From a bacterium (GTDB lineage Bacteria > 4484-113 > JAGGVC01): DNA of 64,000 nucleotides. A program made the position numbers and the translations under genes. The notes beneath the pieces are model-generated. The model saw nothing but the letters and a program-made list of their open reading frames with translations, was not told the origin of the DNA and ran no database searches. Below, in pieces: positions 5,588-50,771 of this stretch. Position 1 is the stretch's first letter; each line of letters begins with the position of its first letter. Location: NCBI GenBank assembly GCA_021158185.1, contig JAGGVC010000126.1, positions 10,689-74,688 on the forward strand. Reading direction: 5' to 3'.

Positions 5588-6420
5588 AATCAGCTCCTGA
5601 TTGGAAAAACAGAACAGAGTTTGTGTTGTCAGCTGCTAACTGTCAACAGGGAATTTATACCCTAAATACCTTGTTCTTTGTAGCTTTTGACTTGCAGGGA
5701 ATGCATTTTGCGTAAATCAATAATTTCACATATCGGGTTCACAAGCATCTTCATGCGAGCAGAAATGCGCTTTTCAGCGTGTACGCAAGTGCTCGGTGGT
5801 TACCCGCTTGTCGTTTGTTTTTGCTGGGCCAAGGGCACACGAGGAGTAATGAGGTAGAGCGGGGGATGGATCAGGATTGCCATCCCAGGCGGAGCAAAGC
5901 ACAGTCGCCAATCCCAACACAATACATTTCGCCTGCACGTTACTCCGCCGGGGATGTTGCAACCCAGGTTGAAGAGAGTCTGAACATTTTTCAAAATGCT
6001 GCCAGTCTACTGATCTACTGAGAAATCTCAGCGAAGACCGGATGCATTTTCTTCTGCAGTGTCGCGTTATCCCGGGGGATGTTCGGGAGAATGAAACTGC
6101 ATGCCGAATTTTAATGTTCACCTGAAGGCAGCGCTTTCCGGGGAAAAACGTTGCCCTGTATCATTTAACCTGAGATAGAGCACTTTGGCTATAGGCTATG
6201 ACAGTGTTTCACAACAGAGACCATTTTTGACATGTCGGATGTCAGTGCGGTTTCGTAGCATTTGCCCATTCACGTTTGGTGATCAAAATCTTGTTTCCTC
6301 TGCTTCGCGCAGATTTACATTTCTTCTTTGTGCTTTCATAAGGTAGAATATATGCAGCAATTTTCCGGGTGTTGAAAGGTGCAGGTTGCCAGTTTATTCT
6401 GGTTATTGTGGGTGAGTGAA

Positions 6421-7983
6421 ATGGAATCATCATTAAGGATTGCTCGTTTTTGTTTTGTCTGCATTGCCGCGATTATGCTGGCGATTACTCTTCTGTCGTG
6501 CAAGGACGGCGGCGGAAGACTAGTCATTACCCAGCCCAGTGACTTGGTCAAGACCAATGCTACAGCAGTTTCACTCGGCGACGACAAGCCGATCGTTCTC
6601 GATTATGACCACGGGAGCGGAGCGACGCCGCAGGGATTTGTGCCCGTCGATTCGTTCGAGCTGGACAATTCCATCGCTGGCGAGTTCACAGCGGCAGTCG
6701 AAGTTACACTCGTTCTGACTGAAGGCGTTGCCCCTGGAACTTCGATTTACATCTACGAGATCATTAGAGCAACCGGCGCACTTATTCCTGTGGCAAGCTC
6801 GGTAGTCGGGGAGGATGGACGAACAATCGTCATTACTCTCAATCGGCAGGGAAGATACCTGGTGCTTATCCTAGCTGACCAGATGGATCCCGCGGCGCAG
6901 TTCGAGGTGTGGGCTTTCGCCGACTTCGCACTAGGGGAAGCGCCGCTGGAAATCAATTTCTTTGCTTTTGAAAGCGGTGGAATCGAGCCTATAACGTATC
7001 TTTGGGATTTCGGCGATGGCGGCGAAGGTGAAGGTTCGGTCGTTTCTCATTCGTACCTTGCGATGGGCGAGTACAACGTTGTGCTTACCGCGACGGACGA
7101 TTCCGGTCGAACAGCGGTCTTTGATTCCACATCCATCGAAATTACAGGTGAGCCTGCACCGCTCGATGTCGTACTTCAGAGTCCGCAGCCTACCGGGAAC
7201 GAAAGAGAGATGCAACTCATCGCAACGGTTTCCGGGGGCTTTGCACCGTTTACATACGAGTGGGATTTCGGCGACGGAACTGCGAGTGAAGAGCCGAACC
7301 CGATTCATACATATGCCGAGTCCGGTATTTTCGCAGTTAGCGTTACAGTGACAGATGCCTTTGGCTTCACATTCACGCCGGATTCACAGACAGCGGACGT
7401 AAGAAGCGCTTCGCTTGATGGTGCACCGCTTGCAGGTCAGCGTGAACTCGATGTTACGTTCGATGTATATGCCGCTGCTGACGATGACAACCCGACTGTC
7501 GTGTCGCTCGACTTTGGTGATGACAGCGGTCTATTTGTACTGAGCACGCTCACTGAAGAGGATCTCACCATTGACGAGCAGGTTCTACACACTTACCTTT
7601 TGCAGGGAACATATACGGCGACGTTGTTGATTTCTACGATGTGGCAGAGCGAAGCGCTGGAGATTCAAGATACCGTGCAGATTGTAGTCGGGCCTGGTAC
7701 TCCCGAGATTCTAGATGTTGCTCCTAATCCTGCCAGTTCGGGAGACCTGATTACCGTTACCGGCAGATTCTTCGAGGACGGCACGAACGGTACGCTCAGA
7801 TGGAGCGGCACGGACATCCCTACGGAAACCTGGTCCGATACCGAGATAACGTTTCTTGTTCCAGCGTCGTCCGTGGATGGTGTTGTAACTGTGGTAAATG
7901 AAGGGCTAGAGAGCATCGGCGCGGATTTGAAAGTGATACCGGATATTCCTGAGTGGGGCGAGGGTGGTCTAGGCCAGTTCTAG
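6421..7983 (+). CDS. Surface lipoprotein with two PKD domains and a C-terminal IPT/TIG domain
   Basis: Signal plus lipobox (…LAITLLSC). Two WDFGDG-type PKD repeats (YLWDFGDGGEG…, YEWDFGDGTAS…). The C-terminal IPT-like segment reads PEILDVAPNPASSGDLITVTGRFF. The ATG at 6421 is preferred over the GTG at 6379. Confidence 0.65.
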   Translation: MESSLRIARFCFVCIAAIMLAITLLSCKDGGGRLVITQPSDLVKTNATAVSLGDDKPIVLDYDHGSGATPQGFVPVDSFELDNSIAGEFTAAVEVTLVLTEGVAPGTSIYIYEIIRATGALIPVASSVVGEDGRTIVITLNRQGRYLVLILADQMDPAAQFEVWAFADFALGEAPLEINFFAFESGGIEPITYLWDFGDGGEGEGSVVSHSYLAMGEYNVVLTATDDSGRTAVFDSTSIEITGEPAPLDVVLQSPQPTGNEREMQLIATVSGGFAPFTYEWDFGDGTASEEPNPIHTYAESGIFAVSVTVTDAFGFTFTPDSQTADVRSASLDGAPLAGQRELDVTFDVYAAADDDNPTVVSLDFGDDSGLFVLSTLTEEDLTIDEQVLHTYLLQGTYTATLLISTMWQSEALEIQDTVQIVVGPGTPEILDVAPNPASSGDLITVTGRFFEDGTNGTLRWSGTDIPTETWSDTEITFLVPASSVDGVVTVVNEGLESIGADLKVIPDIPEWGEGGLGQF

Positions 7984-8082
7984 TATCAGCCAGCCCGGTT
8001 TTTTTGTGTTGCGCCGATTTACGAGGCGAATGTTGATTTGCTTCGATGAGGCGTTAGAGTTGATTAGTATTATTCCTGATCT

Positions 8083-11000
8083 ATGGCGGTGATTGAAGTG
8101 AGGAAATTTGTACTTGCTTCGTTTCTGTTGATTCTGATTGTGCTTGTTTCGCTTGCTTGCGGAAAGGGCACAGGAATGAGGTCCGTTCCGTTCACAAGCG
8201 GATTCACGAACGTTGGCGATGATGCTGCAGACGTCGAGGAATCCCCGAATCTCACGCTGAATGTAATGCGCGATACGAGTGGGCTGCCAACGGGCGTACG
8301 CATCACGTGGCTGTACTCGACTCAGGCGGGGGTGGCTGGTTACAACATCTATCGATCAACCAGTTCCTTTACTGATACAGGGCAGGCGGTGCTGGCAAAC
8401 GCCATCCCAGTTACCGGGGCTCCCGGTGTCCTCGCGGACTTCGAGGATATTTTTCCCGTAACGATCGGTGATGAGTTCTTCTACCGGATTACTGCCGTGG
8501 ATTCCGAAGGTGACGAAAGCCCGTTGTCCGATGAGCTTTCGATTGTGATTTCCCACCATTACATAACCGCCTTGAACGTCTATTCAGGCGGTGCTGATGA
8601 TGTAATCACAATTCTCGGTGGTAACTTCGGTGATTACGATGAACAGAGCGACCGAGTTATGTTCTATGGTGTGACCTTGTATCTGCCGTCATCCCTTGAT
8701 CGTTCGCCTTCGGCTGTAGCTTCACAGGGCTTTGTCAGTGCAACGGTAGTTTCCTGGCAGAATGAGCAGATAGAAGTTGTTGTGCCTCAGTTTACGACAT
8801 CCGGCACGGTTCGGGTTCAAATCAACGGAGTGAATGCCAACCTGGACGGCACGTTTACATCGACGGATCCGTATATGCTCTCAGCCGCACCCGACCCAGC
8901 GATCGAGGGGAAATTGCTTACGATTACTGGAAACAATTTTGGAGACGTTAGGTTGTCGAGCATGGTAAGACTTGGAGCTGTAACATTGAACAAGGATTCC
9001 GATTTCGAAGAATGGTCGAATACCGAAATCAAGTTGATTATGCCTATGAAGATTTTGGGCATCATCAAACTTGACGTCGTAGTTCCCGTAAAACCAGTAT
9101 CAAATTCGTTTATGATGAACATTGCTCCGCTGCCCGATCCGGTCATTTACACGGTAACTCCACTATCCGCGTTCAACGGCAACATTGTTACGATTGGCGG
9201 TGCTAATTTCGCGGAATATGTGGCTACAGAGGATTTTGTATCACTGCGGGGCATTCCAGCTTCCAAGGTGGGTGCGATGCTCAGGAAACCGTCTGCAACG
9301 GCGGTAGAGCAGTATATCGGAGCACGTATCATTAGCTGGACGGATACAATGATCTCCATATTTGTACCCGATTATACAACGATCGGACCGGTGAGAGTTG
9401 ATAGAGGAAGTAAGAGCGTTGTCTTTGATGGCCCGTTTGACTCGCTAAGCCCTGCGATTTTCAGCGCAACACCGGATCCGATCCCTGCAGGTCAGATTCT
9501 TACGCTGACTGGTCGTAACTTTGGCGACATCAGGGGCACGAGCTACGTTAGAGTTGGAAACGTGATGCTCGGCAGCGATGCGCAGTACGACTTCTGGGGG
9601 GATACGGAGATACGGTGCTTTGTTCCAGGCGGTATTGGCGGGATTCAGGACGTGATCGCATCCATTGACGGAAAGGGGCAGTCAAACGCACTTTCAATTT
9701 CCATTACTTCTGCGCTTTTGCCCGTGATAGAAGATGTATCTCCTCAGAAAGCCACAGGCGCTCAACTGGTAACCATCACAGGTCAGCATTTCGGTGATGT
9801 TGCAGGGACAGTGAATATTAACGGAGCTGTGATAAAGACTGGCGCTCCGAATCTTGTGGGGTGGAGCGATACGCTGATAGACATAACTGTGCCTGACACC
9901 GCCGACTTAACAGGCCGAATCAAGGTCAATACAACTGATGGAAGGAACAGCAATGAATGGTACTACAGACGAGGAGTACCGCAGGACGCCGCTTTCAAGA
10001 ATGAGAGCATCCTGTTTGCAGGGCAGATGACGGGAATCGGTTCCGATGCTGTAAATGACGGCGCGTATTCGCACTTCTTCTCCATTTCGGCGAATGCCCG
10101 CGAAATCGTGCATGTCAAAGTAGACGATAACACGGGCGGTGTTCAGGAAGGCATCGTAACGGCTTCATATCCCAACCTGACAGCAAGACTTGCAACGGTA
10201 TTCGATGGGACAAATATTTGGCTCGCGTTCGTTTCAAACAACAAGGTTTACATAACGAGCAGTGCCGATCAGGGATCTACGTGGGATATGCCTGCAACCG
10301 AGGTGTTCGCTGGACCTGCAGATATCGGATCGCTCAGTATTTGCAGCGATTTCGCAGGCAATGCATCCCTCGCGTGGGGTGATATAGCGACCGGCGATGT
10401 GTATTTCAGTCACTTCAGTGCTGCAGCGGGAGGCTGGGTCAATGAGATCGTCGGTATCGGATATACCGTCGGAGATGTTGATGTTGCAATTCAGGATCCC
10501 GTTGCAGGAAAATTGACTCTGGTTACTTACTATACTCTTGCAACGGACGAGATTCAGGTTCTAAGCAACACTACAGGCCTGTGGACACCATACATCGGCC
10601 CGGTCGTCGGCGGCGGACTCTATCACAACGTGTTATTCAAAGACAATGATGCCGAGCCGAGCGTTCTGTTCCTGGATGCTGGCGGCAATATTTCGCTGGC
10701 TTCCGAATGGCCCACTGACCCGGGTGTATGGTCTCTTCTCACGATTCCTACGTCGGCTGGTCTCGGTAACGGACTTGATTCTCTTGATGCAGGAAGCCCG
10801 ATTATGTATATCGCAACCGGAAGTTTCGGTGGTAACATAGATCCGTATTTGATCGAATATAACTATGTTGCCGATTCGAGGATTGAGTACCATATGATTG
10901 ATATCAACAATAAATATGCAGCGTATCCGGCGGTGCTCGTTGATTCTCTGGGCGATGTGAAAAGCATGCATACCGACGTAACGTTGTGGGATCATTGGAT

Positions 11001-12111
11001 TGTCAATTGGGATACATCGGGCGCAGGCAATCATGTACCGGTGAGCTACGGCGATGATTTCGGCGAGATAGTTGCGATGAGCGGTGATGATCATCTGGCA
11101 ATGGATCTTGCAGGTGGAACCGGTTTTCTCTTCAAGGATGCCACTGCAAATAAGCTGTATTTTGGCTACTACAAGGACGGCAAGAAATACTCCCAGCTGA
11201 TTGACGGAGGTGCGGCGACGGACTACCTTGTTGCGGGATTGGACTGCGTTGGGACGAGCTACCATGTCTTTTATCAGAAGGGGACCGATCTGACGCACTG
11301 CATCGTCGATGTTTCAAATCCTGACTCGCTTGATGTGGGAACGAAAACTGCTATTGCCAGCTTTGGTGATACCGTACACGAGGATATTGCAGTTCTTTCG
11401 GGAAGTCCTGGTGATACTGTGATGAATGTTTTGTACGTTGAGACAACAACTGCAACTGGTGCTAATGAGAGGCTGATGCTTGGCAGTATGAGCGAGAGTG
11501 CCTGGGTATTCGAGGAACTTGCTAATCTTGGATCCCTTGCAATAAGCGGTATCGATCTTGCGATGAATCCGAATCTCGAAAACCGTGTCCCTGTCTACTT
11601 TGATTCAAGCTTGAACCAGCTGATGGTCGGCCAGTTCGACGGTACTTCGTGGACGTTTGCGCCAGCGGGGATCACTGCCAATTCAGGCAAATACCCCGTG
11701 CTTGAGTATAAGTATGGAGTTGGGTGTGAGGCTGTTGCATTCGATGAAACCGCCGGAATAGTCGAGCAGTTGATTCAGTTCGATCCTGTTTGGACTCAGG
11801 ACACCATTTCAGATCTCATGGGCACAGATTCGCCATACGATATGTGGGGAGGAGCCTTGAGTTTTGCTGGCGGGGATGCCTGGGGGCTCGTTACAGCGTA
11901 CTACTGTTCACAGAAGGGTGAATTCCAATATGTCATCCGCGAGGAGGAGGGACTGTACACGTACAAGGACGCTTTCTACACAAATCCGATTGGGGATATC
12001 GATTACACTGCGTGCGCAGTGGATGGAAATGCTGGTTCTACAATGATCTACCAAGGAGCGAATGACTTCGGTCTTTATCTCTGCCGTCAGGACCTGCTCG
12101 CCGTATCGTAA
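8083..12111 (+). CDS. Giant (1342 aa) cell-surface protein carrying an FN3 domain, five tandem IPT/TIG domains and a BNR/Asp-box beta-propeller-like region
   Basis: N-terminal signal peptide. FN3-like segment (GYNIYRSTS…YRITAVDSEGDESPLS). Five IPT repeats (ITILGGNFGD, LTITGNNFGDVR, VTIGGANF, LTLTGRNFGDIRG, VTITGQHFGDVAG). Asp-box SSADQGSTWD. Confidence 0.7.
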   Translation: MAVIEVRKFVLASFLLILIVLVSLACGKGTGMRSVPFTSGFTNVGDDAADVEESPNLTLNVMRDTSGLPTGVRITWLYSTQAGVAGYNIYRSTSSFTDTGQAVLANAIPVTGAPGVLADFEDIFPVTIGDEFFYRITAVDSEGDESPLSDELSIVISHHYITALNVYSGGADDVITILGGNFGDYDEQSDRVMFYGVTLYLPSSLDRSPSAVASQGFVSATVVSWQNEQIEVVVPQFTTSGTVRVQINGVNANLDGTFTSTDPYMLSAAPDPAIEGKLLTITGNNFGDVRLSSMVRLGAVTLNKDSDFEEWSNTEIKLIMPMKILGIIKLDVVVPVKPVSNSFMMNIAPLPDPVIYTVTPLSAFNGNIVTIGGANFAEYVATEDFVSLRGIPASKVGAMLRKPSATAVEQYIGARIISWTDTMISIFVPDYTTIGPVRVDRGSKSVVFDGPFDSLSPAIFSATPDPIPAGQILTLTGRNFGDIRGTSYVRVGNVMLGSDAQYDFWGDTEIRCFVPGGIGGIQDVIASIDGKGQSNALSISITSALLPVIEDVSPQKATGAQLVTITGQHFGDVAGTVNINGAVIKTGAPNLVGWSDTLIDITVPDTADLTGRIKVNTTDGRNSNEWYYRRGVPQDAAFKNESILFAGQMTGIGSDAVNDGAYSHFFSISANAREIVHVKVDDNTGGVQEGIVTASYPNLTARLATVFDGTNIWLAFVSNNKVYITSSADQGSTWDMPATEVFAGPADIGSLSICSDFAGNASLAWGDIATGDVYFSHFSAAAGGWVNEIVGIGYTVGDVDVAIQDPVAGKLTLVTYYTLATDEIQVLSNTTGLWTPYIGPVVGGGLYHNVLFKDNDAEPSVLFLDAGGNISLASEWPTDPGVWSLLTIPTSAGLGNGLDSLDAGSPIMYIATGSFGGNIDPYLIEYNYVADSRIEYHMIDINNKYAAYPAVLVDSLGDVKSMHTDVTLWDHWIVNWDTSGAGNHVPVSYGDDFGEIVAMSGDDHLAMDLAGGTGFLFKDATANKLYFGYYKDGKKYSQLIDGGAATDYLVAGLDCVGTSYHVFYQKGTDLTHCIVDVSNPDSLDVGTKTAIASFGDTVHEDIAVLSGSPGDTVMNVLYVETTTATGANERLMLGSMSESAWVFEELANLGSLAISGIDLAMNPNLENRVPVYFDSSLNQLMVGQFDGTSWTFAPAGITANSGKYPVLEYKYGVGCEAVAFDETAGIVEQLIQFDPVWTQDTISDLMGTDSPYDMWGGALSFAGGDAWGLVTAYYCSQKGEFQYVIREEEGLYTYKDAFYTNPIGDIDYTACAVDGNAGSTMIYQGANDFGLYLCRQDLLAVS
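8575..10035 (+). repeat. Five diverged ~100-aa tandem IPT/TIG domain repeats inside the giant surface-protein gene
   Basis: Recurrent xTIxGxNFGD…W(S/G)DTxI motif at about 100-aa spacing in the translated ORF. Confidence 0.5.
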
Positions 12112-12218
12112 GTTGTAGCGACCTCGAATAACGGTATCAGGTTTGAGATGAGCCGGGGTACATGTCCAACACTCAGTTGCCCGATCTCGTCGTTCCGGGA
12201 AGTGAAATCCCCGCTCGC

Positions 12219-14924
12219 TTATTCCGTGACCGTGAAATGCAAAAGGTTTGATACAAAACCGTCCCTCAATATACACACAGGTCCGCTTTCGGCGTTGCTG
12301 AATGGCGGGATTATTGCTGCTTCCGGCTGTGGATAAGGCGGGGGATCGCCTGTATTTTGATCTGTTTCCGCGTCGGGTGGAATTGCTGGCGGAAGCTCGA
12401 CAGGAAGCGAAAGGGGATTATAGGGAACGAGAACCCGTATAAGAGTATCTGTCCAGTCTATCGGAACAGCTTCGACATCTCCGAATGTAATCGTGTTTCC
12501 ACTTGCGCTTGCGCCGAAGGATTCGCCGTGAATTTCCACTGTTGCACCAATGGGCGCGTTATTGGGTGTGATGTTCAGGATCATTGGTGCATAGATGTCC
12601 TCTGAAGAAAAATTTCTCCGTGTCAGAATCTGCGCCAGCGAGACGCCATTATCGATGCCATCACTGTCAAGTATGCTGTCATTCCCGTCTGTAAACCGAA
12701 TGATAATGTAGCGCGCTTGCACAAGCGGAAAACTCAGCATGGCAGCCTGATTATGAATGAGTACAAGCTCTCCATCAGTCATAGCGGATTCATCGATTAT
12801 CGGGATATACGATTCCGCAAGAATAGGCAGAGCGGGATCGTAAACACCAGAAGCAAAAATCCTCAGTGTTTGGCTGTACGGCGGATCGGAAATGCTCATG
12901 GTTCTTCCGGAGAGCATCATCCAGTTAAGCGTTTCGGACTGCGGAAGCTCGATTACAATCTCGCAGGGCGAAGAATCAATCAATTCCGCATACCAGAATG
13001 ATGTTGGAGATTCATCGATCGCTCTTGCTGGTGAATGGCTGGAATCGAATTCGGAGTCAGCTCGGGCGGTTGCGCCGAACGATGAAACTGTCGGACTGTA
13101 CAGGTGTGAATCTGCAGTGAATGAAGTCGATTGGGAGTCCGGTGATTGTGTTGCTCCGTCTGATGCGAGAAGAGTGTTTACGGATAATTCGTACCAGCCC
13201 CCCGGAAAAAGAGGATCCGATTCGAGTCGCACCCTTTTTCCATCGTCCATCAGTACAGCGCGATATATGTATTTTTGAGGTAAAATTGAATAGTGAGAAA
13301 CATCGGTTGCATAGTAAGGATCCAGTGCCCGGTTAAAGAAAATATCCAGATGGGATATTCCATCCGTGCGCACTCCAAGAAGCTCAAGGTCGATTTGCGA
13401 AGGAGACCAGAACGCTTGATATGCATTCACAAGACCCGCACCAAGTTTTCCCGCAAGTTCCGGATATTTGTCGTCAAAGCTCTTAGCGCCGATCATGAGA
13501 GCAGTTCGCACATCATCGAGCGTGTATCCCGGTTTCTCTGAAAGGATGAGCGATGCAAGTCCGCTGATCAGCGGAGCTGAAAGGCTTGTACCGTCTACAG
13601 ACGCGTAAGTTCTTGTTTCGCCATCGGAGTTGACTGTCAATATGCTGGTTGCGGGGGCAAGGATATCGAGGAATTCACCATAATTCGTTCCTTCCGTTGC
13701 CTCGTTCCAGATATCGCTTATTCCCTTTGTTCCGCCCACCGCGATTGCTTCTGGATAGTACGCTGGTGCGCAAAGCTGAGGCGATTCCTCGCCGGCATTT
13801 CCTGCCGCAGCAATAACTATCTTTCCATAATCAGCGCAAACGCTCGTTGCTTCGGCGAGGAGCTTCTGGGATTTCGGATAGACAGCGCTTATGTTGATTA
13901 TTCTTACTTCGGGGTATTTTAGAGTGTGCATCATAGCGCGGATGCAATCGATAACGAGCCAGCCCTTGGATTCGCCAACAAGGGAATCCACTCGGAGCGA
14001 CATAATTCGTACGTTCCAGTCGACGCCTGCGATTCCCTGAGTGTTATTTCCAGCAGCACAAAGGACGCCTGCCACCCTGCTTCCATGTTGGGCACCGTCA
14101 TCAGCATCACCGTTTCCGTCCTCGTCGATTCCGTTTCCTGGCGTTGCGCCGCCATCGCCACGTAAGGATGGGTCATCATCATGTGGCGGGCTAATGAAAT
14201 CCCCGCCTTCAGGGTGAATACGTCCTGCGAATTCAGGATGGTCATAATCAACGCCGGTGTCGATAATTGCGACTGTTAAATCGGAGGAACCAGTTGTCGA
14301 ACCCCAGACATAGTCGATGTATGTTCCGATGATGTAATACTGATCGTTGAAGTACGGGTCATTCGGTGTGACGGGGTCGGATGCGGCTGAACCGTAATAG
14401 TGAGGTTCTGCCAGCCTGACTGAAGGATGCAACTGAATTTTCTCGATATACTCGTCGAGTTCAGGAACATCCGATGAATCTAGTCCGCTTACAAGCCGGT
14501 ATTCTCCGGCTTTCTTGAAGGACGGAATCCTGGAATCAGGGATGGCAAAACGCAATTCAGCAGCAAGAAGCTCAGGTATCCACTCGATCAACTGTGCTCC
14601 TACATCGGATGCTACGGTTCTTGCATCATCCAGCGTGGAGCCTTGCACAAGAATTGCAATCACTTCGTCCGCAACAAACCCGCCCGGCGCGAGCTGTGTT
14701 TTCTTGGGAAGAGCTTCATCAGAAGTATTCGTCACAGAATCAGATATTGGCGATAAGTCGGCATTTTGGTCTTCCGGCTGAGATGCCGGTGAATCCAGTT
14801 GTGAAGAAGAATTTGCTTCAGGGGGAGTAACGCTATGGGGAATATCACGCGATGTGCATCCAAGCAGAAAAACGGCGGTTATCGCCAGAAGTATCTGAGC
14901 GAAAAGGCGACTATTCGATGCCAC
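12219..14924 (-). CDS. Subtilisin-like serine peptidase (S8) lipoprotein with C-terminal discoidin (F5/8 type C)-like and IPT/TIG domains
   Basis: Lipoprotein signal (…AVFLLGC). S8 triad motifs are AIIDTGVDYDHPEF (Asp), HGSRVAGVL (His) and GTSLSAPLISG (Ser). The discoidin-like segment is SPARAIDESPTSFWYAE and the IPT segment is ILNITPNNAPIGATVEIHGESFG. The start codon is GTG. Confidence 0.8.
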   Translation of the reverse strand: MASNSRLFAQILLAITAVFLLGCTSRDIPHSVTPPEANSSSQLDSPASQPEDQNADLSPISDSVTNTSDEALPKKTQLAPGGFVADEVIAILVQGSTLDDARTVASDVGAQLIEWIPELLAAELRFAIPDSRIPSFKKAGEYRLVSGLDSSDVPELDEYIEKIQLHPSVRLAEPHYYGSAASDPVTPNDPYFNDQYYIIGTYIDYVWGSTTGSSDLTVAIIDTGVDYDHPEFAGRIHPEGGDFISPPHDDDPSLRGDGGATPGNGIDEDGNGDADDGAQHGSRVAGVLCAAGNNTQGIAGVDWNVRIMSLRVDSLVGESKGWLVIDCIRAMMHTLKYPEVRIINISAVYPKSQKLLAEATSVCADYGKIVIAAAGNAGEESPQLCAPAYYPEAIAVGGTKGISDIWNEATEGTNYGEFLDILAPATSILTVNSDGETRTYASVDGTSLSAPLISGLASLILSEKPGYTLDDVRTALMIGAKSFDDKYPELAGKLGAGLVNAYQAFWSPSQIDLELLGVRTDGISHLDIFFNRALDPYYATDVSHYSILPQKYIYRAVLMDDGKRVRLESDPLFPGGWYELSVNTLLASDGATQSPDSQSTSFTADSHLYSPTVSSFGATARADSEFDSSHSPARAIDESPTSFWYAELIDSSPCEIVIELPQSETLNWMMLSGRTMSISDPPYSQTLRIFASGVYDPALPILAESYIPIIDESAMTDGELVLIHNQAAMLSFPLVQARYIIIRFTDGNDSILDSDGIDNGVSLAQILTRRNFSSEDIYAPMILNITPNNAPIGATVEIHGESFGASASGNTITFGDVEAVPIDWTDTLIRVLVPYNPLSLPVELPPAIPPDAETDQNTGDPPPYPQPEAAIIPPFSNAESGPVCILRDGFVSNLLHFTVTE

Positions 14925-15992: not shown

Positions 15993-16188
15993 AACTTTTT
16001 CCTCCAGAAATCACATGGCTGAATCGCCAGCTCGACGTAAATCGTCTCACATATTACCAGAAAAGGGCGCAAGTCGTAAAGCGCTAGAAGATAAGCGTGA
16101 TTGCCGAGTGCATGTGAAATTTTGCCGTTAATGATTCATGAGCATGCGAGCGCAAATCACATACAGAATTCAAGCAATGGAATTCTAT

Positions 16189-16217
16189 TTGCAAAACCAG
16201 GCGATTAATACTAGAAT
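16189..16217 (+). promoter_or_regulatory. Putative sigma-70-type promoter (TTGCAA-17-TAGAAT) for the dockerin/cytochrome lipoprotein gene
   Basis: TTGCAA at 16189-16194, a 17-nt spacer, then TAGAAT at 16212-16217. A GGAGA ribosome-binding site sits 7 nt before the TTG at 16273. Confidence 0.35.
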
Positions 16218-16272
16218 ATATGCTCAGGAAGTTGACGCTGTTTTTCGTTGCTGGAGATTTGGAGACACGCCG

Positions 16273-18978
16273 TTGTTTAATCTGAGAGCTTGGGCTTTGC
16301 CATTGGCATTGGTGCTTGCACTGGCATTATCCGCGTGCGAAAGCACGGGCGGCACTTCATCGAGTAATCCCATCGCAGGTTTCTCCGCAAGCGATACGGA
16401 TGAAATAGTCTACGATGTTGTGCTTGGAATTCCCCCTGCGGAATCCAGTGAATTCGGAGACAAAGCTGTTCTTTCCCTTGTTCCGACGGAAGATGAAGGC
16501 GGATTTATTCTTACCGCAGACGGGACTGATGTACGTGTCTGCTATGCAACGATCAATTACAACGCGGATTCGATCCGTTTTATCGGTGCATTCGGCGGTG
16601 AGGTGAATCCGGCTATTTTTGCAGCGATCGAAGTTCGTCCGGGCACGGTTCATATCGGCTGGGCAATACCCGACTTTGATGAAAAGAGCGGACCTTCGGG
16701 CAAAACAACCCTTATGAACCTGAAATTTGGCATCGGGGGCGTTCTCGAAATACGCGATATCTCGAAGGTTCCTGACAGTGAAGGGCACGCTGTCGATGAC
16801 CTTGAGAGCGAATGGACGGAAGATGGTCTCAGCATCACGTTCTACGAAAGAAACCCGGGTGACTACGATAGAGGCGGCGAGGTCGGCGTGCCGGATATCA
16901 CGCCTATTGCACAGAATTATCTTGCCGAAGTCAATTCTGAGGATGAAAATGATACGCTTGTCGTAATCGACGGAGATGGCAGCGGCGAGATCGGAATTCC
17001 AGACATCACGCTTATTGCTGAAAATTATCTTTCGGACATAGAAGGCTATGCACTTCAGTTCTCCGTTGACGGCGGAGTCAACTGGATTCCGGATGAACCT
17101 GCGATAACCGGCCTGGAGGGTGTCCCGCTTTACGTCAGGGATGATTCGGCCTTTGTAACGATCGATCAATGCTATCAATTCCCGCGCTGGACAATCCTGA
17201 TTCCCATTGAAGAGGTTTTCGAATACCAGATTCCAGGGCTCGATCCGGGCAACGACAATATGCTTGTACGCGTGTATCCGACTGATGGCGAGGGCGTCGG
17301 CCCCGGCAGCAACGAAGCTGAAATTTCCATCATTAGCGAGGGCGATACGGAACCACCGCAATGGGTCGATACCGAAGGGCTAACACTCCTCGATCCGGTT
17401 TCGAATTTCAACACGCTCCAACTGGAATTCGGTGAAGCAGTTGACGACAGCGGCGAGGACGTGGTGTACAGGATCTATTATGCAAAGTCAGCCGAGTTCG
17501 ATTCGCATTACGCCGAGCTCGAAGAAAATCCCGATGCGATTGGTTTTACCGAAATCTGGCCCCGCTACGACGAAATGCCGCCTTATTCCCATGAGCTTGT
17601 CGGGCTTGAGCCCGGCCAGGAATACAAGGTGCTTGTTCGCGCAAGAGACGATGCGTTTCCCGATATGAATATCGATTCGAACACGAATATTGGAACGGTC
17701 GTTGTTGATGAGCATTCGTTGCTTCTCAGCGAGATTCTATGGGCCAAGTCTGGCGATTCAGGCGAGCCCGCAAACGGCGATGTGATTGAACTGAGCGTTG
17801 AGATTACCGGCGGCACAGGCGAGATTAGTACAGTCTGGAGCGACGAAAGGCCGGACGCCGGGTATTTTGTAGGCGACGGTATTCTTGAAGGCAACGTTGC
17901 AACGAATATGTGGGGTACTGCTCTTGGAAGTGAGTGGTATACGATAAGGATAAGCGCAACTGACGCCGAAGAACGGAACGGGATGCAGGAGACCTCCTTT
18001 TATGTGGGCTGGCAGCCGATCCCGAGCTTCAACGACGACATTTATTCGATAATCGAAGCTTCTTGCATTTCTTGCCATGGCATTGGCGGCGCTTCGGGCC
18101 TTGATATGAGCAATACTTCCACAGCTTTTGAAAACCTTGTGAATGAATCTTCGGCTCAAGTGCCTGAAATATACAGGATAGAGCCATTTGAGCCGGGGCA
18201 GAGCTACCTCATATGCAAGCTCCTGGATGGTTGTCCGATCAACACGGGGGTACGGATGCCGAAGGACGCCGATCCGTTGCCCGAAAGCGAGTTCCTTGAC
18301 ATCTTGAGATGGGTATATACCGGAGCAAATGAAGGTGCTCCCGACCCGACGAAGATCTATTTTGCCGCACCAATTCTTAGGCTGGTGAGCGGAGAAGATC
18401 CTGTGAGTGAGATTCCTGCAGGATTCCTTGGAGAAATTTCGATACCATTCATATCCGAGTTCACAGCTCCTCTTACTGCCGAAGTGTCCGACGACAGCGA
18501 TCACTGCGATGCGTTCATTGATCCGGGTGATTTCTATGATGAAGAGGTACTCTGGATAATGGTCGGCGGTGACAGTGCCGGAACATACAGCGTTGTTCTC
18601 GATGTCGAGGATGCCGAAGGAAAAACGGGGCATCTTGAGATTCCGGTTGCGATTACAGGCTCGGGAGCCAGGCTGTTATCTTATGAAGCACATATCGAGC
18701 CGTTAATTATCCCACGTTGTGCTGCGTGCCACGGTGCAGTCCCACCGGTAATGACCGAGGGGGAAGGATACGGCAACCTTGTAGGCCAGCCATCGTCGCA
18801 GGACGGGATCGACTATGTAACTCCCGTGAACATGACTAAGAGCTATATTGTTTTCAAGACGATGGGATGGTCGCCTGCCGGGCCTGAGCCCCATCATGTC
18901 GATCCCGACGACGATGAAGATATTGGACAGTTCCTCGTACCGATTGCCGAGTGGATTATCGGGGGAGCGCTGCCTTAA
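16273..18978 (+). CDS. Large lipoprotein with a cohesin-like N-domain, two dockerin-type Ca-binding repeats, an FN3-like domain and two PSCyt1-type (CxxCH) cytochrome c domains
   Basis: A TTG start at 16273 puts the signal peptide at the N-terminus (MFNLRAWALPLALVLALALSAC, lipobox LSAC). The ORF-track start at 16138 lies upstream of the predicted promoter. Dockerin repeats are DYDRGGEVGVPDITPIAQNYL and DGDGSGEIGIPDITLIAENYL. The heme motifs are CISCH and CAACH, and the second domain ends …WIIGGA, which is PSCyt1-like. Confidence 0.55.
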   Translation: MFNLRAWALPLALVLALALSACESTGGTSSSNPIAGFSASDTDEIVYDVVLGIPPAESSEFGDKAVLSLVPTEDEGGFILTADGTDVRVCYATINYNADSIRFIGAFGGEVNPAIFAAIEVRPGTVHIGWAIPDFDEKSGPSGKTTLMNLKFGIGGVLEIRDISKVPDSEGHAVDDLESEWTEDGLSITFYERNPGDYDRGGEVGVPDITPIAQNYLAEVNSEDENDTLVVIDGDGSGEIGIPDITLIAENYLSDIEGYALQFSVDGGVNWIPDEPAITGLEGVPLYVRDDSAFVTIDQCYQFPRWTILIPIEEVFEYQIPGLDPGNDNMLVRVYPTDGEGVGPGSNEAEISIISEGDTEPPQWVDTEGLTLLDPVSNFNTLQLEFGEAVDDSGEDVVYRIYYAKSAEFDSHYAELEENPDAIGFTEIWPRYDEMPPYSHELVGLEPGQEYKVLVRARDDAFPDMNIDSNTNIGTVVVDEHSLLLSEILWAKSGDSGEPANGDVIELSVEITGGTGEISTVWSDERPDAGYFVGDGILEGNVATNMWGTALGSEWYTIRISATDAEERNGMQETSFYVGWQPIPSFNDDIYSIIEASCISCHGIGGASGLDMSNTSTAFENLVNESSAQVPEIYRIEPFEPGQSYLICKLLDGCPINTGVRMPKDADPLPESEFLDILRWVYTGANEGAPDPTKIYFAAPILRLVSGEDPVSEIPAGFLGEISIPFISEFTAPLTAEVSDDSDHCDAFIDPGDFYDEEVLWIMVGGDSAGTYSVVLDVEDAEGKTGHLEIPVAITGSGARLLSYEAHIEPLIIPRCAACHGAVPPVMTEGEGYGNLVGQPSSQDGIDYVTPVNMTKSYIVFKTMGWSPAGPEPHHVDPDDDEDIGQFLVPIAEWIIGGALP

Positions 18979-19076
18979 TTCCATTGTGTCCCTGAAGCCT
19001 GATCGTAACCATTCCTTTAATCAACATTCGAATTTGCGCGGCCGCAGATCTCGATTCACTCGATGATCATTTTTGA

Positions 19077-19096
19077 TTAACTGATAGATCAGTTAA
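19077..19096. promoter_or_regulatory. Perfect 9-bp inverted repeat (TTAACTGAT-AG-ATCAGTTAA) about 180 nt upstream of the diguanylate cyclase gene; candidate operator
   Basis: Palindrome read directly from the sequence. Confidence 0.2.
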
Positions 19097-19272
19097 GACC
19101 AGGGAGGATGCAGCGTATTGCTTGAATCCTTGGATAAGCCATAATGTGACGGTATAATCCAAGTGTTACGCCGTATTCCTTTGCTCGTGCTTGATTTTTA
19201 GTTTGGCCGGGTTTTCTCGAAAGCCGAAGATGGACGGCAGCAAGGCGTACGTTACACGTTACTGGATCGATC

Positions 19273-23248: not shown

Positions 23249-24079
23249 ATGCGATTTGCTTTCTTTTTGCCTTTGCTTCGAGTTGATGACAGCGGATTCA
23301 CTTTTGAGGAGTTCTTGAGAAACTTGGTGAATGCCGTTAAAATCAGTTCGCCGGATAATTACTCCTACCCGCTGTACAAGCATTTTTTTGGTGATAACGG
23401 TGGAAGCGACAACGGTAACAGTTCCCGCAGCGATGAAACACACAAGCTTCTTGAGAACTACCTTCATCGGTACAAGGTTCTCCCCGAAGAAGCCGCGCTG
23501 ATCAAATTATTCAAGAAAATTAGCATAGATATCGATCATGCATATAGACACCCAAGGAAACTTGGCTCAGTGAGCCTGTCTCGGTATTTAGACGCATTCG
23601 TAGATTTTCCTGCGCTCAAGTCCTGCCTGGATCTGGTTTGTCACTATTTTCTGCATAAAACGACTGGCTCGGTCAATGCTTCTGACGGACTGGTTCTTAT
23701 CGACAAGTGCTTCTTCGAAAGGAGCGAGCTGCCATTCATCGAGCATCTGGAGCTTTTGCGCGATGAGTGCCGTGCAGGAGTTCACGCGATTCCTGCACTA
23801 TCGATGAATATCGAAACTGAATTGCGATTTCGACGCGACAGGCTTTACTGCATACAATTCGCTGCCGAAAGACCGGTTCAGACATCAAATTCTTTCTTTG
23901 CTCATTTTGAGAAGAAGGACTCAATGAAGAGTTTGGCTTACGTTGAATCATTTCTGTCGGCCGATGAAGCGGAGTTCCATGGAGTTGATCCTTCTGGCTG
24001 GGTCGATCTGAGAAATGAGATGAAGAATATGTTTGATGCGCGTTTTACGAACGCAAGAACTGAAGTAAGTATGACTTAG
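23249..24079 (+). CDS. Hypothetical protein (276 aa) occupying the position where yicC/yloC usually sits
   Basis: Open frame with a promoter and ribosome-binding site. I recognise no domain, and it does not resemble the YicC N- or C-terminal domains. Confidence 0.45.
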   Translation: MRFAFFLPLLRVDDSGFTFEEFLRNLVNAVKISSPDNYSYPLYKHFFGDNGGSDNGNSSRSDETHKLLENYLHRYKVLPEEAALIKLFKKISIDIDHAYRHPRKLGSVSLSRYLDAFVDFPALKSCLDLVCHYFLHKTTGSVNASDGLVLIDKCFFERSELPFIEHLELLRDECRAGVHAIPALSMNIETELRFRRDRLYCIQFAAERPVQTSNSFFAHFEKKDSMKSLAYVESFLSADEAEFHGVDPSGWVDLRNEMKNMFDARFTNARTEVSMT

Positions 24080-26683: not shown

Positions 26684-27700
26684 GTGATGGGTACACCGAG
26701 ATTTGAGAAACCGGAGAGGAGAAGAATGATGCTGAGGAACTTGTCTCTATGGGGACTGCCCATTTTGTTTCTGATCGCAGGGCTTGTTGTCGGGAATGTT
26801 GCCGGAAAGAATGCAGACGCTTTTGCAGCATCTGATACCCTGATTCTCGAACAGGGCGGCAACACATACGATCTTGACGACTACAGCCTGTTTCTTTTTA
26901 TGAATTCCAGTGATGTTATCGAGATTTTCATCGATATGGTCGTAATCCGAAGCGAGGCGGAATCCCGCGGGCTCAAAGTTACGGAGGCAGAAGTTGATGA
27001 ATTCATAGCAGGCAATATGGTCTCGACCGACGGGCGAAACCGCTATGATCAGTACGTAGAGCTTTTCGATAAGGACACGATACGCCGCCAGATTGCAATG
27101 CAGATCCTATCAGAAAAACTGGAAAAGCAATTGCGCGACGAGATCGTTAGAGAGCAAAATCTGAATGTGACTGAAAAGGACGCAAAGGACTTCTTCCTCG
27201 AACACATTGCCGAGATTCATCGGCCCGCTATGGTGGATGTCAGCCTCCTTTCCACGAGTGATCGGGCAAAGTGCGAGGAAGCTCTTCGCAGGCTTGAGGG
27301 TGGAGCGGACTTCAACGAGCTTTCAGCTGAAATGAGCGATATCAAAGAGCTTGCCCAGCAGGGAGGCCATCTCGGTCGGGCTTCATATCGCGACCTGGAA
27401 TCGATAAATTCCACACTTGCCGACACCGCATTCGGTTTGTCGGACGAGCAGTACAGCGATATTATACGCGGCGAGCACAATTTCCATATCGTATTTGTAC
27501 ACCAGAAATTGCCCGAATACACGCCTACTTTTGATGAAATCAAGGACGACCTGAGAGAGCAGATCTTTGAAGCTAAGCTTAAGCCGCTGATGGCCAACGC
27601 ATACAACAGGATTCTTGCTAAGGGATACGAATCAGTCGAGCCAAAAGTAAGGCTTCTCGAACCGAAAAATCGGGGAACGGGAGATTCCGAGGACGGATAA
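26684..27700 (+). CDS. Parvulin-type peptidyl-prolyl cis-trans isomerase (SurA/PrsA-like), signal-anchored
   Basis: N-terminal TM/signal segment, then a PpiC-type rotamase region (…GGHLGRASYRDLES…FHIVFV…). Confidence 0.6.
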   Translation: MMGTPRFEKPERRRMMLRNLSLWGLPILFLIAGLVVGNVAGKNADAFAASDTLILEQGGNTYDLDDYSLFLFMNSSDVIEIFIDMVVIRSEAESRGLKVTEAEVDEFIAGNMVSTDGRNRYDQYVELFDKDTIRRQIAMQILSEKLEKQLRDEIVREQNLNVTEKDAKDFFLEHIAEIHRPAMVDVSLLSTSDRAKCEEALRRLEGGADFNELSAEMSDIKELAQQGGHLGRASYRDLESINSTLADTAFGLSDEQYSDIIRGEHNFHIVFVHQKLPEYTPTFDEIKDDLREQIFEAKLKPLMANAYNRILAKGYESVEPKVRLLEPKNRGTGDSEDG

Positions 27701-27831: not shown

Positions 27832-30164
27832 ATGGTGAATTTGAACCAGCCGGTTGACGTTGAGCTTCTTTGCAAGGCAGGAGGGGGACGCACTTATACA
27901 TATCGGTACAACCTTCATTATCTGTACCCGGAGCCGGGTGAGATCGTTGTTGTTCCTTTCGGTTCAAGACTTGCCCCCGCCGTCGTTGTCGAGAAACCGA
28001 AGGTCGAACCCGCTCTTCGTCTGCCGCTTGGCAGTGTCGCGTCGAGTTCCTTTTCAGACATAGAAAAGCTTAGGCCGATTCTGGGTGTCGTTCGTGAACC
28101 CGGAATTCTTCACTCAATATCAGTATCCGCAGGTAGATTGATTAAGAAATATCTACGCTCTGCTGCTGCCGCATTTTCGACGTGGACACCGGCATCGTTT
28201 GAGCGAGAATTCAAGCTGTTTTTTTTTGCCCGGGTGGGCGTGAGCGCCTGAAGGAATATATCCGCGCTCTCAATAATAAAGGTGAGCTTGACAAGAATAG
28301 CGCAGCCAGAATCCTAGAAATACTCGAGCCTTGTTGTGATGAACCCAAACAGCTTCTTGCGCGCACGATCCGCTTCTTGATCAAGTATCCCGCACGCTCA
28401 GGAAGGCCGCCGCAGGGTCTTCTGTCAGATGCGAGACTCCAGGCAATGGTCAACCTCGGGCTTCTCAAATTCCTTGTCCGTCCAAAGTACATCGAGGCGT
28501 TTGAAGATTATGCAACCGGATCATCGCCGCCATCTCCATTACCAAACCTGTTTACGGATTTCAAGCTGTTCAAACTGGCTGAACGGAACGCGTTTCTCGC
28601 ATCATTTCCCGAAGCAATCACTATATTTACCGCATTCTCAGGTGTCGATCGAATCCTTTGCGACGGTCTTTCAGAATTTCTTGATGCTTCGGTTGTCGCA
28701 TCAAGGCAAAGGCGGGCAATTATCGCGCCATCGAAGGGCTGGTGCACAATCATCGGGGAGCGGCTAATCAAACTTGGATTGAAACCCGCTTTCTTCAACT
28801 CAGCTCTCTCTCCCGCAAGAACGAGGAAGCTCCTGGGCGATGTTTTGAATGGCAAGCGCGATATCGCGGTGGGTACACGCGCTCTTGCACCACTCACCTC
28901 TCATTTTGGCCCATCGGATGTTTTTTTGTTTGACGCGGACTCGACCGCTTTCGATGCGGAACCGACACATCCCGATGTTCTGGGCATACTCGGCGCCGGG
29001 CTTGCAGATGGGAGTACCGTTTTTATTCACCATTTCAAGGGCGCAGGGGCAAAAGAGGCTGGCATTTCTCCTGACATCAGCCCTGCGTTCAAAGGCAAAA
29101 CCAGCAGAACTCCCACAAAAAAATCCCCTGACTCTGCAAGAAAGCTGCATCGAGGCCTACCGGACAGCCGGCTTGAAGTAGTTAATCTTGCCAGATGGAA
29201 GGAATCCCCCAAAGGTGATAATCCTGTGGCTCTTCTTGCCATCGAGGTAGCCAGAGGTGGTTCACAGCTTTTGCTTGTCCAAAACAGGCTGGGCGAATCG
29301 AGCGGGTTTTACTGTGCCGAATGCTACACAGATATTCCCTGTCCGAGGTGCGGTGCGATGCTCCACTTCACAGGCGGTCGCTACAAGTGCTCGACGTGCG
29401 GATTCTCGGATTCAAAGATAGCGTGCCCGGCTTGCGGTTCAACGAGTCTCGGGCGTACGGCTCCCGGTATTTTTTCGACCGCAAAGGATATTTCGAAGCT
29501 TCTCGGCTCAAAGGACGGGATAAGAACGTTTTTTTCGGAATCAGACATCGGCAGGAGTGATTCATCCAACGAGTCCGGCATTGGAACAAATGCAGACAAG
29601 CGCGTAAACGACAAAGCCGCACCAGGAATCTCTATTTCGACCGATGTGTGCCTGTACCGCAGACTGCCTGTCCATCCTGATGCGATAGTTGTTACGGGCA
29701 TAGAGGACAAGCTTTCCCGATATGCATATAGCGGAGGCGAGCGCTCTTCCGCTTATCTGGCTCGGATTCGCGGAATTTACTCCGGTGAGAGTACAAGGCT
29801 TATAGTGGGCACGTTCCGATATGACCATCCGTTTTTCCGCTGGCTTCGCGGAGAAAATGATGGGTATTTCGTCGAGCGAAAAAAACTAGCCTTGAAGCGC
29901 GGTCTTCCGCCATTTGCGCCAATGTTCGTTGTTCGCGTTAGGGCAAGCGCTTACAAGCAGGCGTGGCTTTTTGCAAAGGCGTTGAAGAGTGAGTTTGGAG
30001 AATCATCCTTTCTTGATCCGGTCGCCCTGCGCGGTGCGAGTGTAACCCGTAAGGTTCTTGAAATCGAGGCGGCTTCGCCCCTTGACAATTTTCAAAGGAA
30101 AACCATTGTTGCTCTCGGAAGAAAGTACAAGATTGAGGCTCTCCCGTACGTTACGTACTTCTAG
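27832..30164 (+). pseudogene. priA: PriA-like primosomal protein, split by a frameshift at a T9 homopolymer (28219-28227) and carrying degenerate ATPase motifs
   Basis: The N-terminal ORF 27832-28251 matches the PriA 3'-DNA-binding domain (YTYRY…GEIVVVPFGSRLAPAVVV). Frame 3 is open from 28203 and continues collinear with PriA through the Cys-rich zinc region (CAECYTDIPCPRCG…CSTCG…CPACGS). Walker A, Walker B and motif VI are replaced by FSGVDR, FDADST and IRGIYSG. Confidence 0.55.
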
Positions 30165-36618: not shown

Positions 36619-37722
<1,104 letters not shown>

Positions 37723-37784
37723 TCAGCATACTCTCCCGTTGAAACACCGCATTTGAGATGGAAACGCCATCCCTGAGAAGATGC

Positions 37785-38628: not shown

Positions 38629-38640
38629 AATGACCTCCGT

Positions 38641-39959: not shown

Positions 39960-40018
39960 GTTACAACTCCGTGTTCCAGAAATAAGTCCGCGCTTATGTC
40001 AACAGTACAACAGCAGAA

Positions 40019-40840: not shown

Positions 40841-40851
40841 GAATCAAAGCT

Positions 40852-50693: not shown

Positions 50694-50771
50694 GCAGGTT
50701 GTTTGAAGAACATTGGGATTTGATTCCCAATTTGATTGAGGAAGTTCGGGGATTGCGAAGGAGAGAAGCCG

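Follow-up and report, generated by a model that had tools for sequence, protein, structure and literature searches.

Two kinds of described system stand closest to the protein reported here. PSCyt1 cytochrome domains are known from proteins of Planctomycetes and Verrucomicrobia with a typical PSCyt1/PSCyt2/PSD1 architecture, encoded beside a DUF1501 gene and of a function not known (PMC3542564; 10.1101/150078). The hemes of FoxE are His/Met-ligated, each distal Met being donated by the partner domain (PMC10654088), and heme alpha-II of hydrazine synthase (HZS) has been called 'atypical bis-histidine' (PMC12758564). The second kind comprises non-cellulosomal cohesins and dockerins, which, in the parts of the literature available to us, are described as modules on diverse non-cellulolytic envelope proteins, with lineage expansions and often without large scaffoldins; those parts name no cytochrome as a tagged payload (PMC9012536, PMC10553843). 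Here we analyse a 64,000-nucleotide stretch of an uncultured bacterial genome (contig JAGGVC010000126.1, positions 10,689 to 74,688; hereafter the window), in which one gene encodes a predicted lipoprotein with two c-type heme domains (the target) behind a cohesin-like and dockerin-like pair of modules (the handle). The target is built as a modular stalk; its domains belong to known superfamilies, and their arrangement is specific to the lineage and had not been annotated before. On balance, we think that it acts as a membrane-tethered two-heme electron carrier, held by its handle in a Ca-dependent assembly with similarly tagged paralogues.

The uninterrupted open reading frame (ORF) spans 16138-18978 on the + strand, exactly as stated in an earlier reading made from the letters alone (the sequence-only reading), and encodes 946 amino acids (aa) when counted from the first ATG. 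Judged from its surroundings, TTG 16273 is likely the true start, yielding a 901-aa lipoprotein precursor: a Shine-Dalgarno-like GGAGAC read from the sequence (16261-16266) precedes it at a spacing of 6 nt, and a promoter-like site falls inside the extension from ATG 16138, which mildly favours a later start. Promoter-like sites are weak evidence here, four being found against 3.9 expected in shuffles. The NCBI record (hypothetical protein J7K50_09225 [bacterium]) starts eight codons later, at TTG 16297. Residue numbers below refer to the 901-aa form; ORF numbering is obtained by adding 45. The N terminus, MFNLRAWALPLALVLALALSAC, starts with a positive n-region, continues with a hydrophobic core and closes with the lipobox L-S-A-C (MFNLRAWALPLALVLALALS-A-C, matching the pattern [LVI][ASTVI][GAS]C), whose Cys22 is the predicted lipidated residue. 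Orthologues P0002, P0020 and P0136 have equivalent lipoboxes, and a consensus of 55 paralogues includes 'SC' with a nearly invariant Cys; the lipoprotein signal of the sequence-only reading therefore stands at motif level. The features of the gene, all on the + strand, are as follows.

16188..16217, +: promoter-like site TTTGCA-18-TAGAAT, a consensus match inside the ATG-16138 extension
16273..16338, +: lipoprotein signal peptide MFNLRAWALPLALVLALALSAC, aa 1-22, with lipobox LSAC at motif level
16408..16752, +: cohesin-like beta-sandwich, aa ~46-160
16753..17352, +: FN3-like domain, aa ~161-360, with the dockerin-like pair apparently inside its B-C loop
16858..17031, +: dockerin-like duplicated Ca-loop/helix pair GDYDRGGEVGVPDITPIAQNYL ... 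DGDGSGEIGIPDITLIAENYL, aa 196-253, with invariant loops and marginal dockerin profile matches
17353..17718, +: second FN3 domain, aa ~361-482, from a sub-cut-off Pfam fn3 match and the AlphaFold2 (AF2) model
17755..18009, +: Ig-like beta-sandwich spacer 1, aa ~495-579, from AF2 beta strands at a predicted local distance difference test score (pLDDT) of 45-83, with no family match
18010..18363, +: cytochrome c domain 1 (PSCyt1/FoxE type), aa 580-697, with CISCH, the RMP Met and an RWVYTGA end
18364..18657, +: Ig-like beta-sandwich spacer 2, aa ~698-795, from AF2 strands
18658..18975, +: cytochrome c domain 2 (PSCyt1/FoxE type), aa 796-901, with CAACH, PHH in place of Met and an EWIIGGALP end

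Direct family scans identify little of this layout. The sequence-only reading had named PSCyt1, dockerin and cohesin, to be checked with HMMER against PF07635, PF00404 and PF00963; none of these families matched the target in an hmmscan against Pfam at E <= 10, so that on the refutation criterion of that reading (lack of a statistical PSCyt1 or dockerin match) the claim would fail at this step. The three calls proved right in kind, at superfamily level, only by the profile and fold methods described below. All Pfam matches of the target were sub-threshold, namely Cytochrome_CBB3 (E 3e-4) and Cytochrom_C on heme domain 1, PccH on heme domain 2, and fn3 (E 6e-4). An NCBIfam scan of the target added nothing to Pfam, and a single-sequence phmmer search with it against the PDB gave no meaningful match. 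Only 13 proteins among 5.8 billion resemble the whole target, and just two of them, P0002 and P0003, contain CxxCH. The FN3 call of the sequence-only reading scores 20.4 bits against PF00041 in the target, below the 25-bit gathering score, but exceeds that cut-off in orthologues P0002 (26.8 bits) and P0136 (27.6 bits). The full-length AF2 model, built from a 13-sequence alignment, is also at its most confident in this second FN3 domain (mostly pLDDT 74-93); its mean pLDDT is 54, with heme and dockerin-like regions below 50, and it was not used for fold search.

Two heme domains of the PSCyt1/FoxE family

CISCH (aa 598-602; 18064-18078) and CAACH (aa 816-820; 18718-18732) occupy the conserved heme-attachment position of the two domains and contain four of the target's 10 Cys. 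Segment 1 ends in RWVYTGA, and segment 2, with the whole protein, in EWIIGGALP before the stop. The sequence-only reading had described two segments of roughly 90 aa with one CxxCH each; the motif count is right, but the segments measure about 105-118 aa. They are mutually similar (z = 8.6 against shuffles). Duplication of a whole (Ig + cytochrome) unit was considered and is not shown, because the two Ig-like spacers are not detectably related (z 1.6). Of the window's stop-to-stop ORFs that reach 120 aa, one other contains CxxCH (61801-62709, minus strand); it was rejected as a cytochrome, being a ComF-like zinc-ribbon phosphoribosyltransferase. With the few Cys, the mutual similarity of the segments and the invariant Ca loops described below, this sets the motifs of the target apart from chance occurrences.

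To place the domains in a family, we built a profile (A1) from five heme segments and searched cluster representatives exhaustively, which gave 13,742 matches at E <= 1e-3 and 2,885 at E <= 1e-10. The Cys...Cys-His triad is kept in 381 of 407 domain copies taken from the best matches (~208 as CxxCH, ~154 as CxxxxCH), the Met of an 'rMP' motif in 368 and the Trp of a terminal WI..GA in 375. When 60 relatives were sampled, 47 had a Pfam PSCyt1 match (best E 7.2e-31), and it fell where the A1 profile matched; in P0016, for example, the two models (A1 profile, PSCyt1) cover 386-485 and 400-466. Through these intermediates, the heme segments of the target are thus shown to be homologous to bona fide PSCyt1 domains. 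Closer to the target, orthologue P0020 has a faint PSCyt1 match (17.6 bits, E 0.006) under the PF07635 gathering score of 22 bits and scores above the cut-offs of Pfam's Cytochrome_CBB3 and Cytochrom_C; scans of P0002 and P0003 at E <= 1 contain no PF07635. The WI..GA ending, read earlier as the PSCyt1 terminus, is indeed present in segment 2, but it is a trait of the larger domain family, since the 59-position Pfam PSCyt1 model stops before it. In the closest relatives, ~38% of domain copies use CxxxxCH at the heme-attachment position, and 60 of the 149 closest-relative proteins (representatives P0014-P0162) lack any CxxCH yet are strong family members.

The company that these domains keep is broader than the sequence-only reading assumed when it had PSCyt1 travelling with PSD1 and PSCyt2 in giant proteins. 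Partner domains in the nearest cytochrome-domain relatives include, as other N-terminal parts, Ig/Big_7, CHRD and GSDH. Among the 149 best relatives, a lipobox-like N terminus is found in 89, and nearly all have 2-7 domain copies. There is therefore nothing unusual in a lipoprotein that combines Ig-like domains with PSCyt1-like hemes. Nearly every relative has two or more copies, and this, together with the precedent of FoxE, suggests by analogy that the target's heme domains work as a pair.

Two solved structures anchor the family. Against the PDB, the A1 profile matched FoxE of Rhodobacter ferrooxidans SW2 (5mab, E 2.2e-9), with both FoxE heme domains aligned end to end across CxxCH, the RMP Met and the C-terminal WI..GA, and the C-terminal heme domain of anammox HZS alpha (5c2v, E 3.5e-6). 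Like the target, FoxE is envelope-exported and has two monoheme domains of one family. It differs in being small and soluble (291 aa); its two domains adjoin, each heme is His/Met-ligated and the distal Met residues are exchanged between the domains (PMC10654088), whereas the target is a 901-aa lipoprotein with an Ig-like domain between its heme domains, His-His in domain 2 and no foxYZ context. The HZS alpha-II domain resembles the target as a monoheme electron-transfer module of the same family set on non-heme beta domains; unlike the target, which has no catalytic domain, HZS alpha belongs to a soluble catalytic complex in the anammoxosome. PSCyt1 proteins share CxxCH, the MP motif and WI..GA with the target, in which, unlike the typical members, PF07635 scores below detection; neither PSCyt2 nor PSD1 was found in the protein, nor DUF1501 among its neighbours.

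Ligands can be proposed from these alignments. Cys, Cys and His are kept in both domains of the target, P0002, P0020 and P0136, and in the single-heme paralogue P0003. Met148 of 5mab aligns with the 'RMP' motif of the profile, which domain 1 of the target retains; domain 2 has P-H-H there, as does P0002, and P0020 has A-H-H. FoxE is His/Met-ligated, and HZS alpha-II lacks the family Met and is bis-His-ligated (PMC12758564), the arrangement that we propose for domain 2; both ligations therefore occur in this family. Heme 1 is probably His/Met and heme 2 probably His/His, the latter because a conserved His-His replaces the family Met.

A cohesin-like and dockerin-like handle

The dockerin-type loops of the target are DYDRGGEVGVPDITPIAQNYL (aa 197-217) and DGDGSGEIGIPDITLIAENYL (aa 233-253), and with their helices they read DYDRGGEVGVPD+ITPIAQNYL and DGDGSGEIGIPD+ITLIAENYL. 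This fits the duplicated plan of ~22 residues, a 12-residue Ca loop (D1, D/N3, D/N/S5, D12) followed by a helix, with repeats 30-40 aa apart. Ca-loop residues are invariant in 13 of 13 homologues, Asp stands at position 12 of both loops, and the median repeat spacing is 36 aa. The pair is the best-conserved region among orthologues, with 53-70% identity where the other domains have 29-51%. When a profile of the pair was searched against the PDB, the top two matches were dockerins (4fl4_A, E 0.049; R. bromii Amy16 9qf9, E 0.07), both repeats in register, at E-values that are marginal; EF-hand proteins came next (E 0.6-3). PF00404 was not found in nine homologues at E <= 1, nor is it one of the 25 families that recur most often in the list for 55 paralogues; a word-indexed search with the same profile returned seven short fragments without Pfam labels.

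A dedicated AF2 model of aa 37-362 (mean pLDDT 65; 71-81 in the dockerin-like region) places, in order, a beta-sandwich, two strands, the two main loop-helix units of the dockerin-like pair, with a helix after each loop, and the rest of a second sandwich. Conserved flanks, 'LtW.y.N' before the pair and 'GY.i..S' after it, point to an insertion into the B-C loop of an FN3-like domain. The beta-sandwich at aa ~46-160 has, in the model, a cohesin-type jelly-roll fold. Foldseek with the handle model gave as its top match the Coh-X-DocII fragment of CipA (3kcp), and both fold searches were topped by cohesins rather than generic sandwiches, with 2xdh and 2w1n among the top matches. A profile of the domain matched only cohesins at E <= 10 (best E 0.83). 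Pfam Cohesin (PF00963) appeared in P0003 (E 0.023) and in two of 55 paralogues (best E 4.5e-5).

The earlier claims about this region come out mixed. Both 'canonical' dockerin repeats are present with invariant loops, but 'canonical' overstates a pair that PF00404 does not match; the cohesin-like beta domain is borne out by the fold searches, with weak sequence support and no PF00963 match in the target itself. It seems that the handle represents a branch of the cohesin/dockerin world that has no annotation and escapes Pfam. We detected no dockerin specificity classes, and loop positions 10-11 (position 11 being Pro or Ser) showed no significant link to the presence of the cohesin-like domain (p = 0.08).

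Comparison with described assemblies sharpens this placement. In the cellulosomal Coh-X-DocII of Clostridium thermocellum CipA (3kcp) the dockerin follows the FN3-like domain, whereas the target's pair lies inside it; the target's modules are N-terminal, right behind the lipid anchor, unlike those of cellulosomal systems. Differences from cellulosomal dockerins also include a Gly at loop position 9 and an invariant T-P-I-A in the helix. The handle further differs from cellulosomes in having no Pfam matches and no carbohydrate-active payloads, and no multi-cohesin scaffoldin was found. The non-cellulosomal systems compared were those of Archaeoglobus fulgidus (2xdh), anaerobic methanotrophic (ANME) archaea and syntrophic sulfate-reducing bacteria, and the cohesin+FN3 of Clostridium perfringens GH84C (2w1n). 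As these do, the handle tags diverse envelope proteins in one lineage; unlike these systems, which standard domain models detect, it is divergent, is coupled to a lipobox and sits on PSCyt1-like and multiheme cytochromes.

We surveyed one genome per GTDB species with patterns from the dockerin-like pair, obtaining 67 loci. About 30 lie in each of two metagenome-assembled genomes (MAGs), CAYMAI01 and CAZRQJ01, whose label 'uncultured Planctomycetia' is unverified; a few others come from a Planctomycetales MAG, Kazan and Saccharibacteria genomes and unclassified MAGs. Across the fetched loci, ~91 distinct proteins carry the pair, once each, near the N terminus and usually after a lipobox-like Cys. 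A full cohesin-like domain immediately precedes the pair in 39 of them, and only one fragment has the cohesin-like domain without the pair. Payloads in 55 tagged proteins comprise PKD (25), fn3 (12), Ig, PQQ-type propellers, C11/S8 peptidases, BNR and AhpC/TSA. PSCyt1-like payloads are rare, being confined to the target, its orthologues P0002, P0020 and P0136, P0003 and one further paralogue. The architecture singled out earlier as unusual is therefore unusual in its handle and rare in joining it to a cytochrome, but the handle is a lineage-wide tag, not specific to cytochromes, and the lipoprotein-Ig-heme part is ordinary.

Several of these loci deserve mention in their own right. The third heme-bearing paralogue (L005:9614-11986, +; CAYMAI010000008.1) combines the dockerin-like pair, I-set/PKD x2, fn3 and one PSCyt1-like domain. 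A 450-aa ORF (L029:583-1932, +; CAZRQJ010000251.1) has six CxxCH (Pfam Cytochrom_CIII, Cytochrome_C7) and a dockerin-like pair at ~aa 161-243, so a multiheme cytochrome bears the same N-terminal tag. Dockerin-like pairs also occur in loci L058, L062 and L063 of candidate division Kazan and L059 of Saccharibacteria, at 38-45% identity over ~80-100 aa; their sequences suggest either horizontal spread to candidate-phyla-radiation genomes or an older origin of the module.

Genomic context and lineage

A full-length orthologue is ~44% identical to the target, and the gene order is conserved between the two loci: S55 peptidase, S8/TIG peptidase, NTP-transferase, target or orthologue, and GAF-GGDEF. 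In the window, the GAF-GGDEF gene lies directly downstream of the target across a gap of 295 bp (18979-19272) that contains a strong promoter-like site, TGGATA-16-TATAAT (19131-19158; 10 of 12 consensus matches) and in which no terminator-like site was found; in a related genome a GGDEF gene starts only 46 bp after P0003. One related locus (L001:6875-17169, Logan SRR36519099 contig 88; also L002 and L003) holds three handle-bearing paralogues, namely a 912-aa di-heme orthologue, the 670-aa single-heme P0003 and a PQQ-propeller/fn3 protein of 1128-1153 aa, with a 64-aa Fer4_13 ferredoxin gene and a GAF-GGDEF gene between them.

Upstream of the target, the window contains an envelope block of a PKD/TIG protein (6379-7983), a 1342-aa TIG-repeat protein (8083-12111) and a 901-aa S8 subtilase (12219-14924, minus) with a TIG domain and a lipobox-like N terminus; none of these upstream envelope proteins (6379-14924) has cohesin-like, dockerin-like or cytochrome modules. 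Elsewhere lie a complete chemotaxis block (36619-44265, minus: CheA of 1137 aa with two Hpt stretches, CheR, CheD, an HDOD protein, CheX and CheB) and three genes with sporulation-named domains (an S55 SpoIVB-type peptidase at 3461-5587, minus; a GerM 'Germane' at 31812-32843, minus; and a HAMP-SpoIIE phosphatase at 50736-52361, +). A SurA-like PPIase (26684-27700) fits a diderm envelope. ORFs at 23249-24079 (+, 276 aa) and 28377-30164 (+, 595 aa) have no Pfam match at E <= 1e-3. An Rfam scan of the window returned no RNA families. Neither multiheme nor porin genes occur in the window, and none of its other proteins has the three modules.

The window's MutS has a few metagenomic relatives at 62-66% identity and then matches of at most 49% across many phyla, with nothing named above 49%, and so gives no phylum assignment; by this sequence measure the source organism belongs to a deep-branching uncultured lineage. 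Tetranucleotide correlation (r) of the window is 0.75-0.80 against two related MAGs and 0.47 against L061 (MAG AUK046, GC content 0.58). Composition thus connects the window with the two related MAGs, and AUK046 was rejected on these values as the genome from which the window comes. Since NrfH/NrfA (E 2e-133) and multiheme cytochromes are encoded in related MAGs, maturation of c-type cytochromes must take place in the lineage. One NrfH/NrfA pair (L005:18576-20654, +; NapC/NirT family and Cytochrom_C552, E 2e-133) lies ~7 kb downstream of the third heme-bearing paralogue.

Proposed function and alternatives

The domain identities, conservation and family expansion above were computed; heme attachment, ligand types, Ca binding, docking of the cohesin-dockerin type, cellular location and redox partners are what we infer, in the following scheme. 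The unfolded precursor would be exported by the Sec/signal-peptidase-II route and lipidated at Cys22, after which a cytochrome c maturation system would attach heme covalently to both CxxCH motifs. A His/Met heme 1 and a probable His/His heme 2 would have two different potentials. The FN3 domain and the two Ig-like spacers would present the two monoheme domains beyond the lipid-proximal handle, and the heme domains would pass single electrons between envelope redox partners, as a carrier or acceptor module rather than a wire or an enzyme. The handle would keep the protein in a Ca-dependent assembly with paralogues bearing the same tag; docking onto another protein, as the sequence-only reading suggested, is plausible.

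Several results weigh against this scheme. The target has no direct Pfam match to PSCyt1, dockerin or cohesin, the sequence evidence for dockerin and cohesin is marginal (E 0.05-0.8), and AF2 confidence is low to moderate (mean pLDDT 54 and 65), with no useful model of the heme domains. The target's heme domains lie ~100 aa apart, unlike the Met-swapping domains of FoxE; as the distal Met comes from the partner domain there, ligation geometry is not simply transferable. Nor does the His-His of domain 2 coincide in position with an identified HZS ligand. In the window, the target has no adjoining gene for a redox enzyme or partner, and no cytochrome c maturation gene was found in its 64 kb. An ORF with the WWD motif of CcsA/CcmC/CcmF was likewise absent from 1.19 Mb (related loci plus window), a negative that is uninformative because this covers only part of the related genomes. 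In the fetched loci no ORF has several cohesin-like domains, as a scaffoldin would; this absence is weak evidence, because the loci were chosen through dockerin patterns.

The alternative that we take most seriously, although we consider it unlikely, is a membrane-anchored periplasmic cytochrome that does not dock at all, its pair being a structural Ca insertion of the EF-hand type that stabilises the FN3-like domain and its cohesin-like domain a generic spacer. The missing PF00404 and PF00963 matches would fit, as would the EF-hand proteins ranked close behind dockerins, the embedding of the pair in another domain, the lack of a cohesin-like domain in more than half of the tagged paralogues, the missing scaffoldin and the absence of a significant link between loop positions 10-11 and cohesin presence. 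Yet the two best PDB matches are both dockerins with repeats in register, the position-12 Asp is as in the 4fl4 repeats and the 36-aa spacing fits that alignment, cohesins rather than generic sandwiches lead both fold searches, and the cohesin-like domain adjoins the pair in 39 proteins; the pair is, moreover, the most conserved segment, beyond what a purely structural loop would be expected to show. A heme-free adhesin or structural surface protein with vestigial CxxCH is hardly credible. The maturation genes missing from the window and related loci, and the dominance of PKD/Ig-type adhesin-like proteins among same-handle paralogues, speak for it, but the Cys, Cys, His triad is kept in both domains of four orthologues, in P0003 and in 381 of 407 wider-family copies, and related MAGs make c-type cytochromes.

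A bolder version of docking, close to what the sequence-only reading envisaged, would make the target a cell-surface heme protein with a true dockerin on a cohesin scaffold, with a role either in extracellular electron transfer, the acceptors being minerals or partner cells, or in redox sensing, for instance as an input to the GAF-GGDEF protein. We regard this as improbable. Both module types are present, the six-CxxCH cytochrome of a related MAG has the same tag, the GAF-GGDEF gene lies directly downstream in both genomes (46 bp after P0003 in the related one), and non-cellulosomal cohesin/dockerin proteins feature prominently in syntrophic consortia with extracellular electron transfer (PMC9012536, PMC10553843). 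Against this, two hemes split by an Ig-like domain cannot form a long-range wire, no porin-cytochrome or multiheme conduit genes lie in the window, a periplasmic location is equally compatible with the data, the window's GGDEF gene is 295 bp away with a promoter-like site of its own (10/12), no scaffoldin was found in the fetched loci, and most handle-bearing paralogues have non-redox payloads; the suggestion of extracellular electron transfer or redox sensing is thus not supported. Quite improbable, too, is the most far-reaching idea, that the handle is the unit of an undescribed, cellulosome-style, lipid-anchored, self-assembling envelope lattice in which dozens of lipoproteins, many of them with both a cohesin-like and a dockerin-like module, are linked head-to-tail by Ca-dependent contacts and c-type cytochromes sit beside tagged enzymes, a 'redoxosome' for extracytoplasmic electron transfer; its members may include the di-heme target, the single-heme paralogue, the tagged 6-heme cytochrome, PQQ-type propellers, a peroxiredoxin and peptidases. 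Very unlikely is a FoxE-like Fe(II) oxidase, whose heme domains would oxidise soluble Fe(II) at the membrane surface by accepting its electrons. Among solved homologues FoxE is the best; it aligns over both heme domains and is implicated, as a di-heme protein, in phototrophic Fe(II) oxidation (PMC10654088), but the homology is at the level of a domain family with >13,000 representatives and many architectures, domain 2 lacks the Met ligand used by both FoxE hemes, and the window has no foxY/foxZ-type or phototrophy genes.

The novelty of the tethered two-heme carrier is a new combination of known parts, a cytochrome with this handle, and not a new kind of system. PSCyt1-type domains occur in many thousands of proteins, the papers cited on them give their function as unknown, and a divergent member is now tied to FoxE and HZS alpha. 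The natural exchange of Met for His-His could tune heme potential within one polypeptide. If the modules do not bind each other, the target is simply a tethered two-heme electron carrier. If they do, the handle would constitute a compact system for protein assembly, new and lipid-anchored, into which redox proteins are recruited; this would be relevant to the envelopes of uncultured bacteria and would offer parts for synthetic scaffolds.

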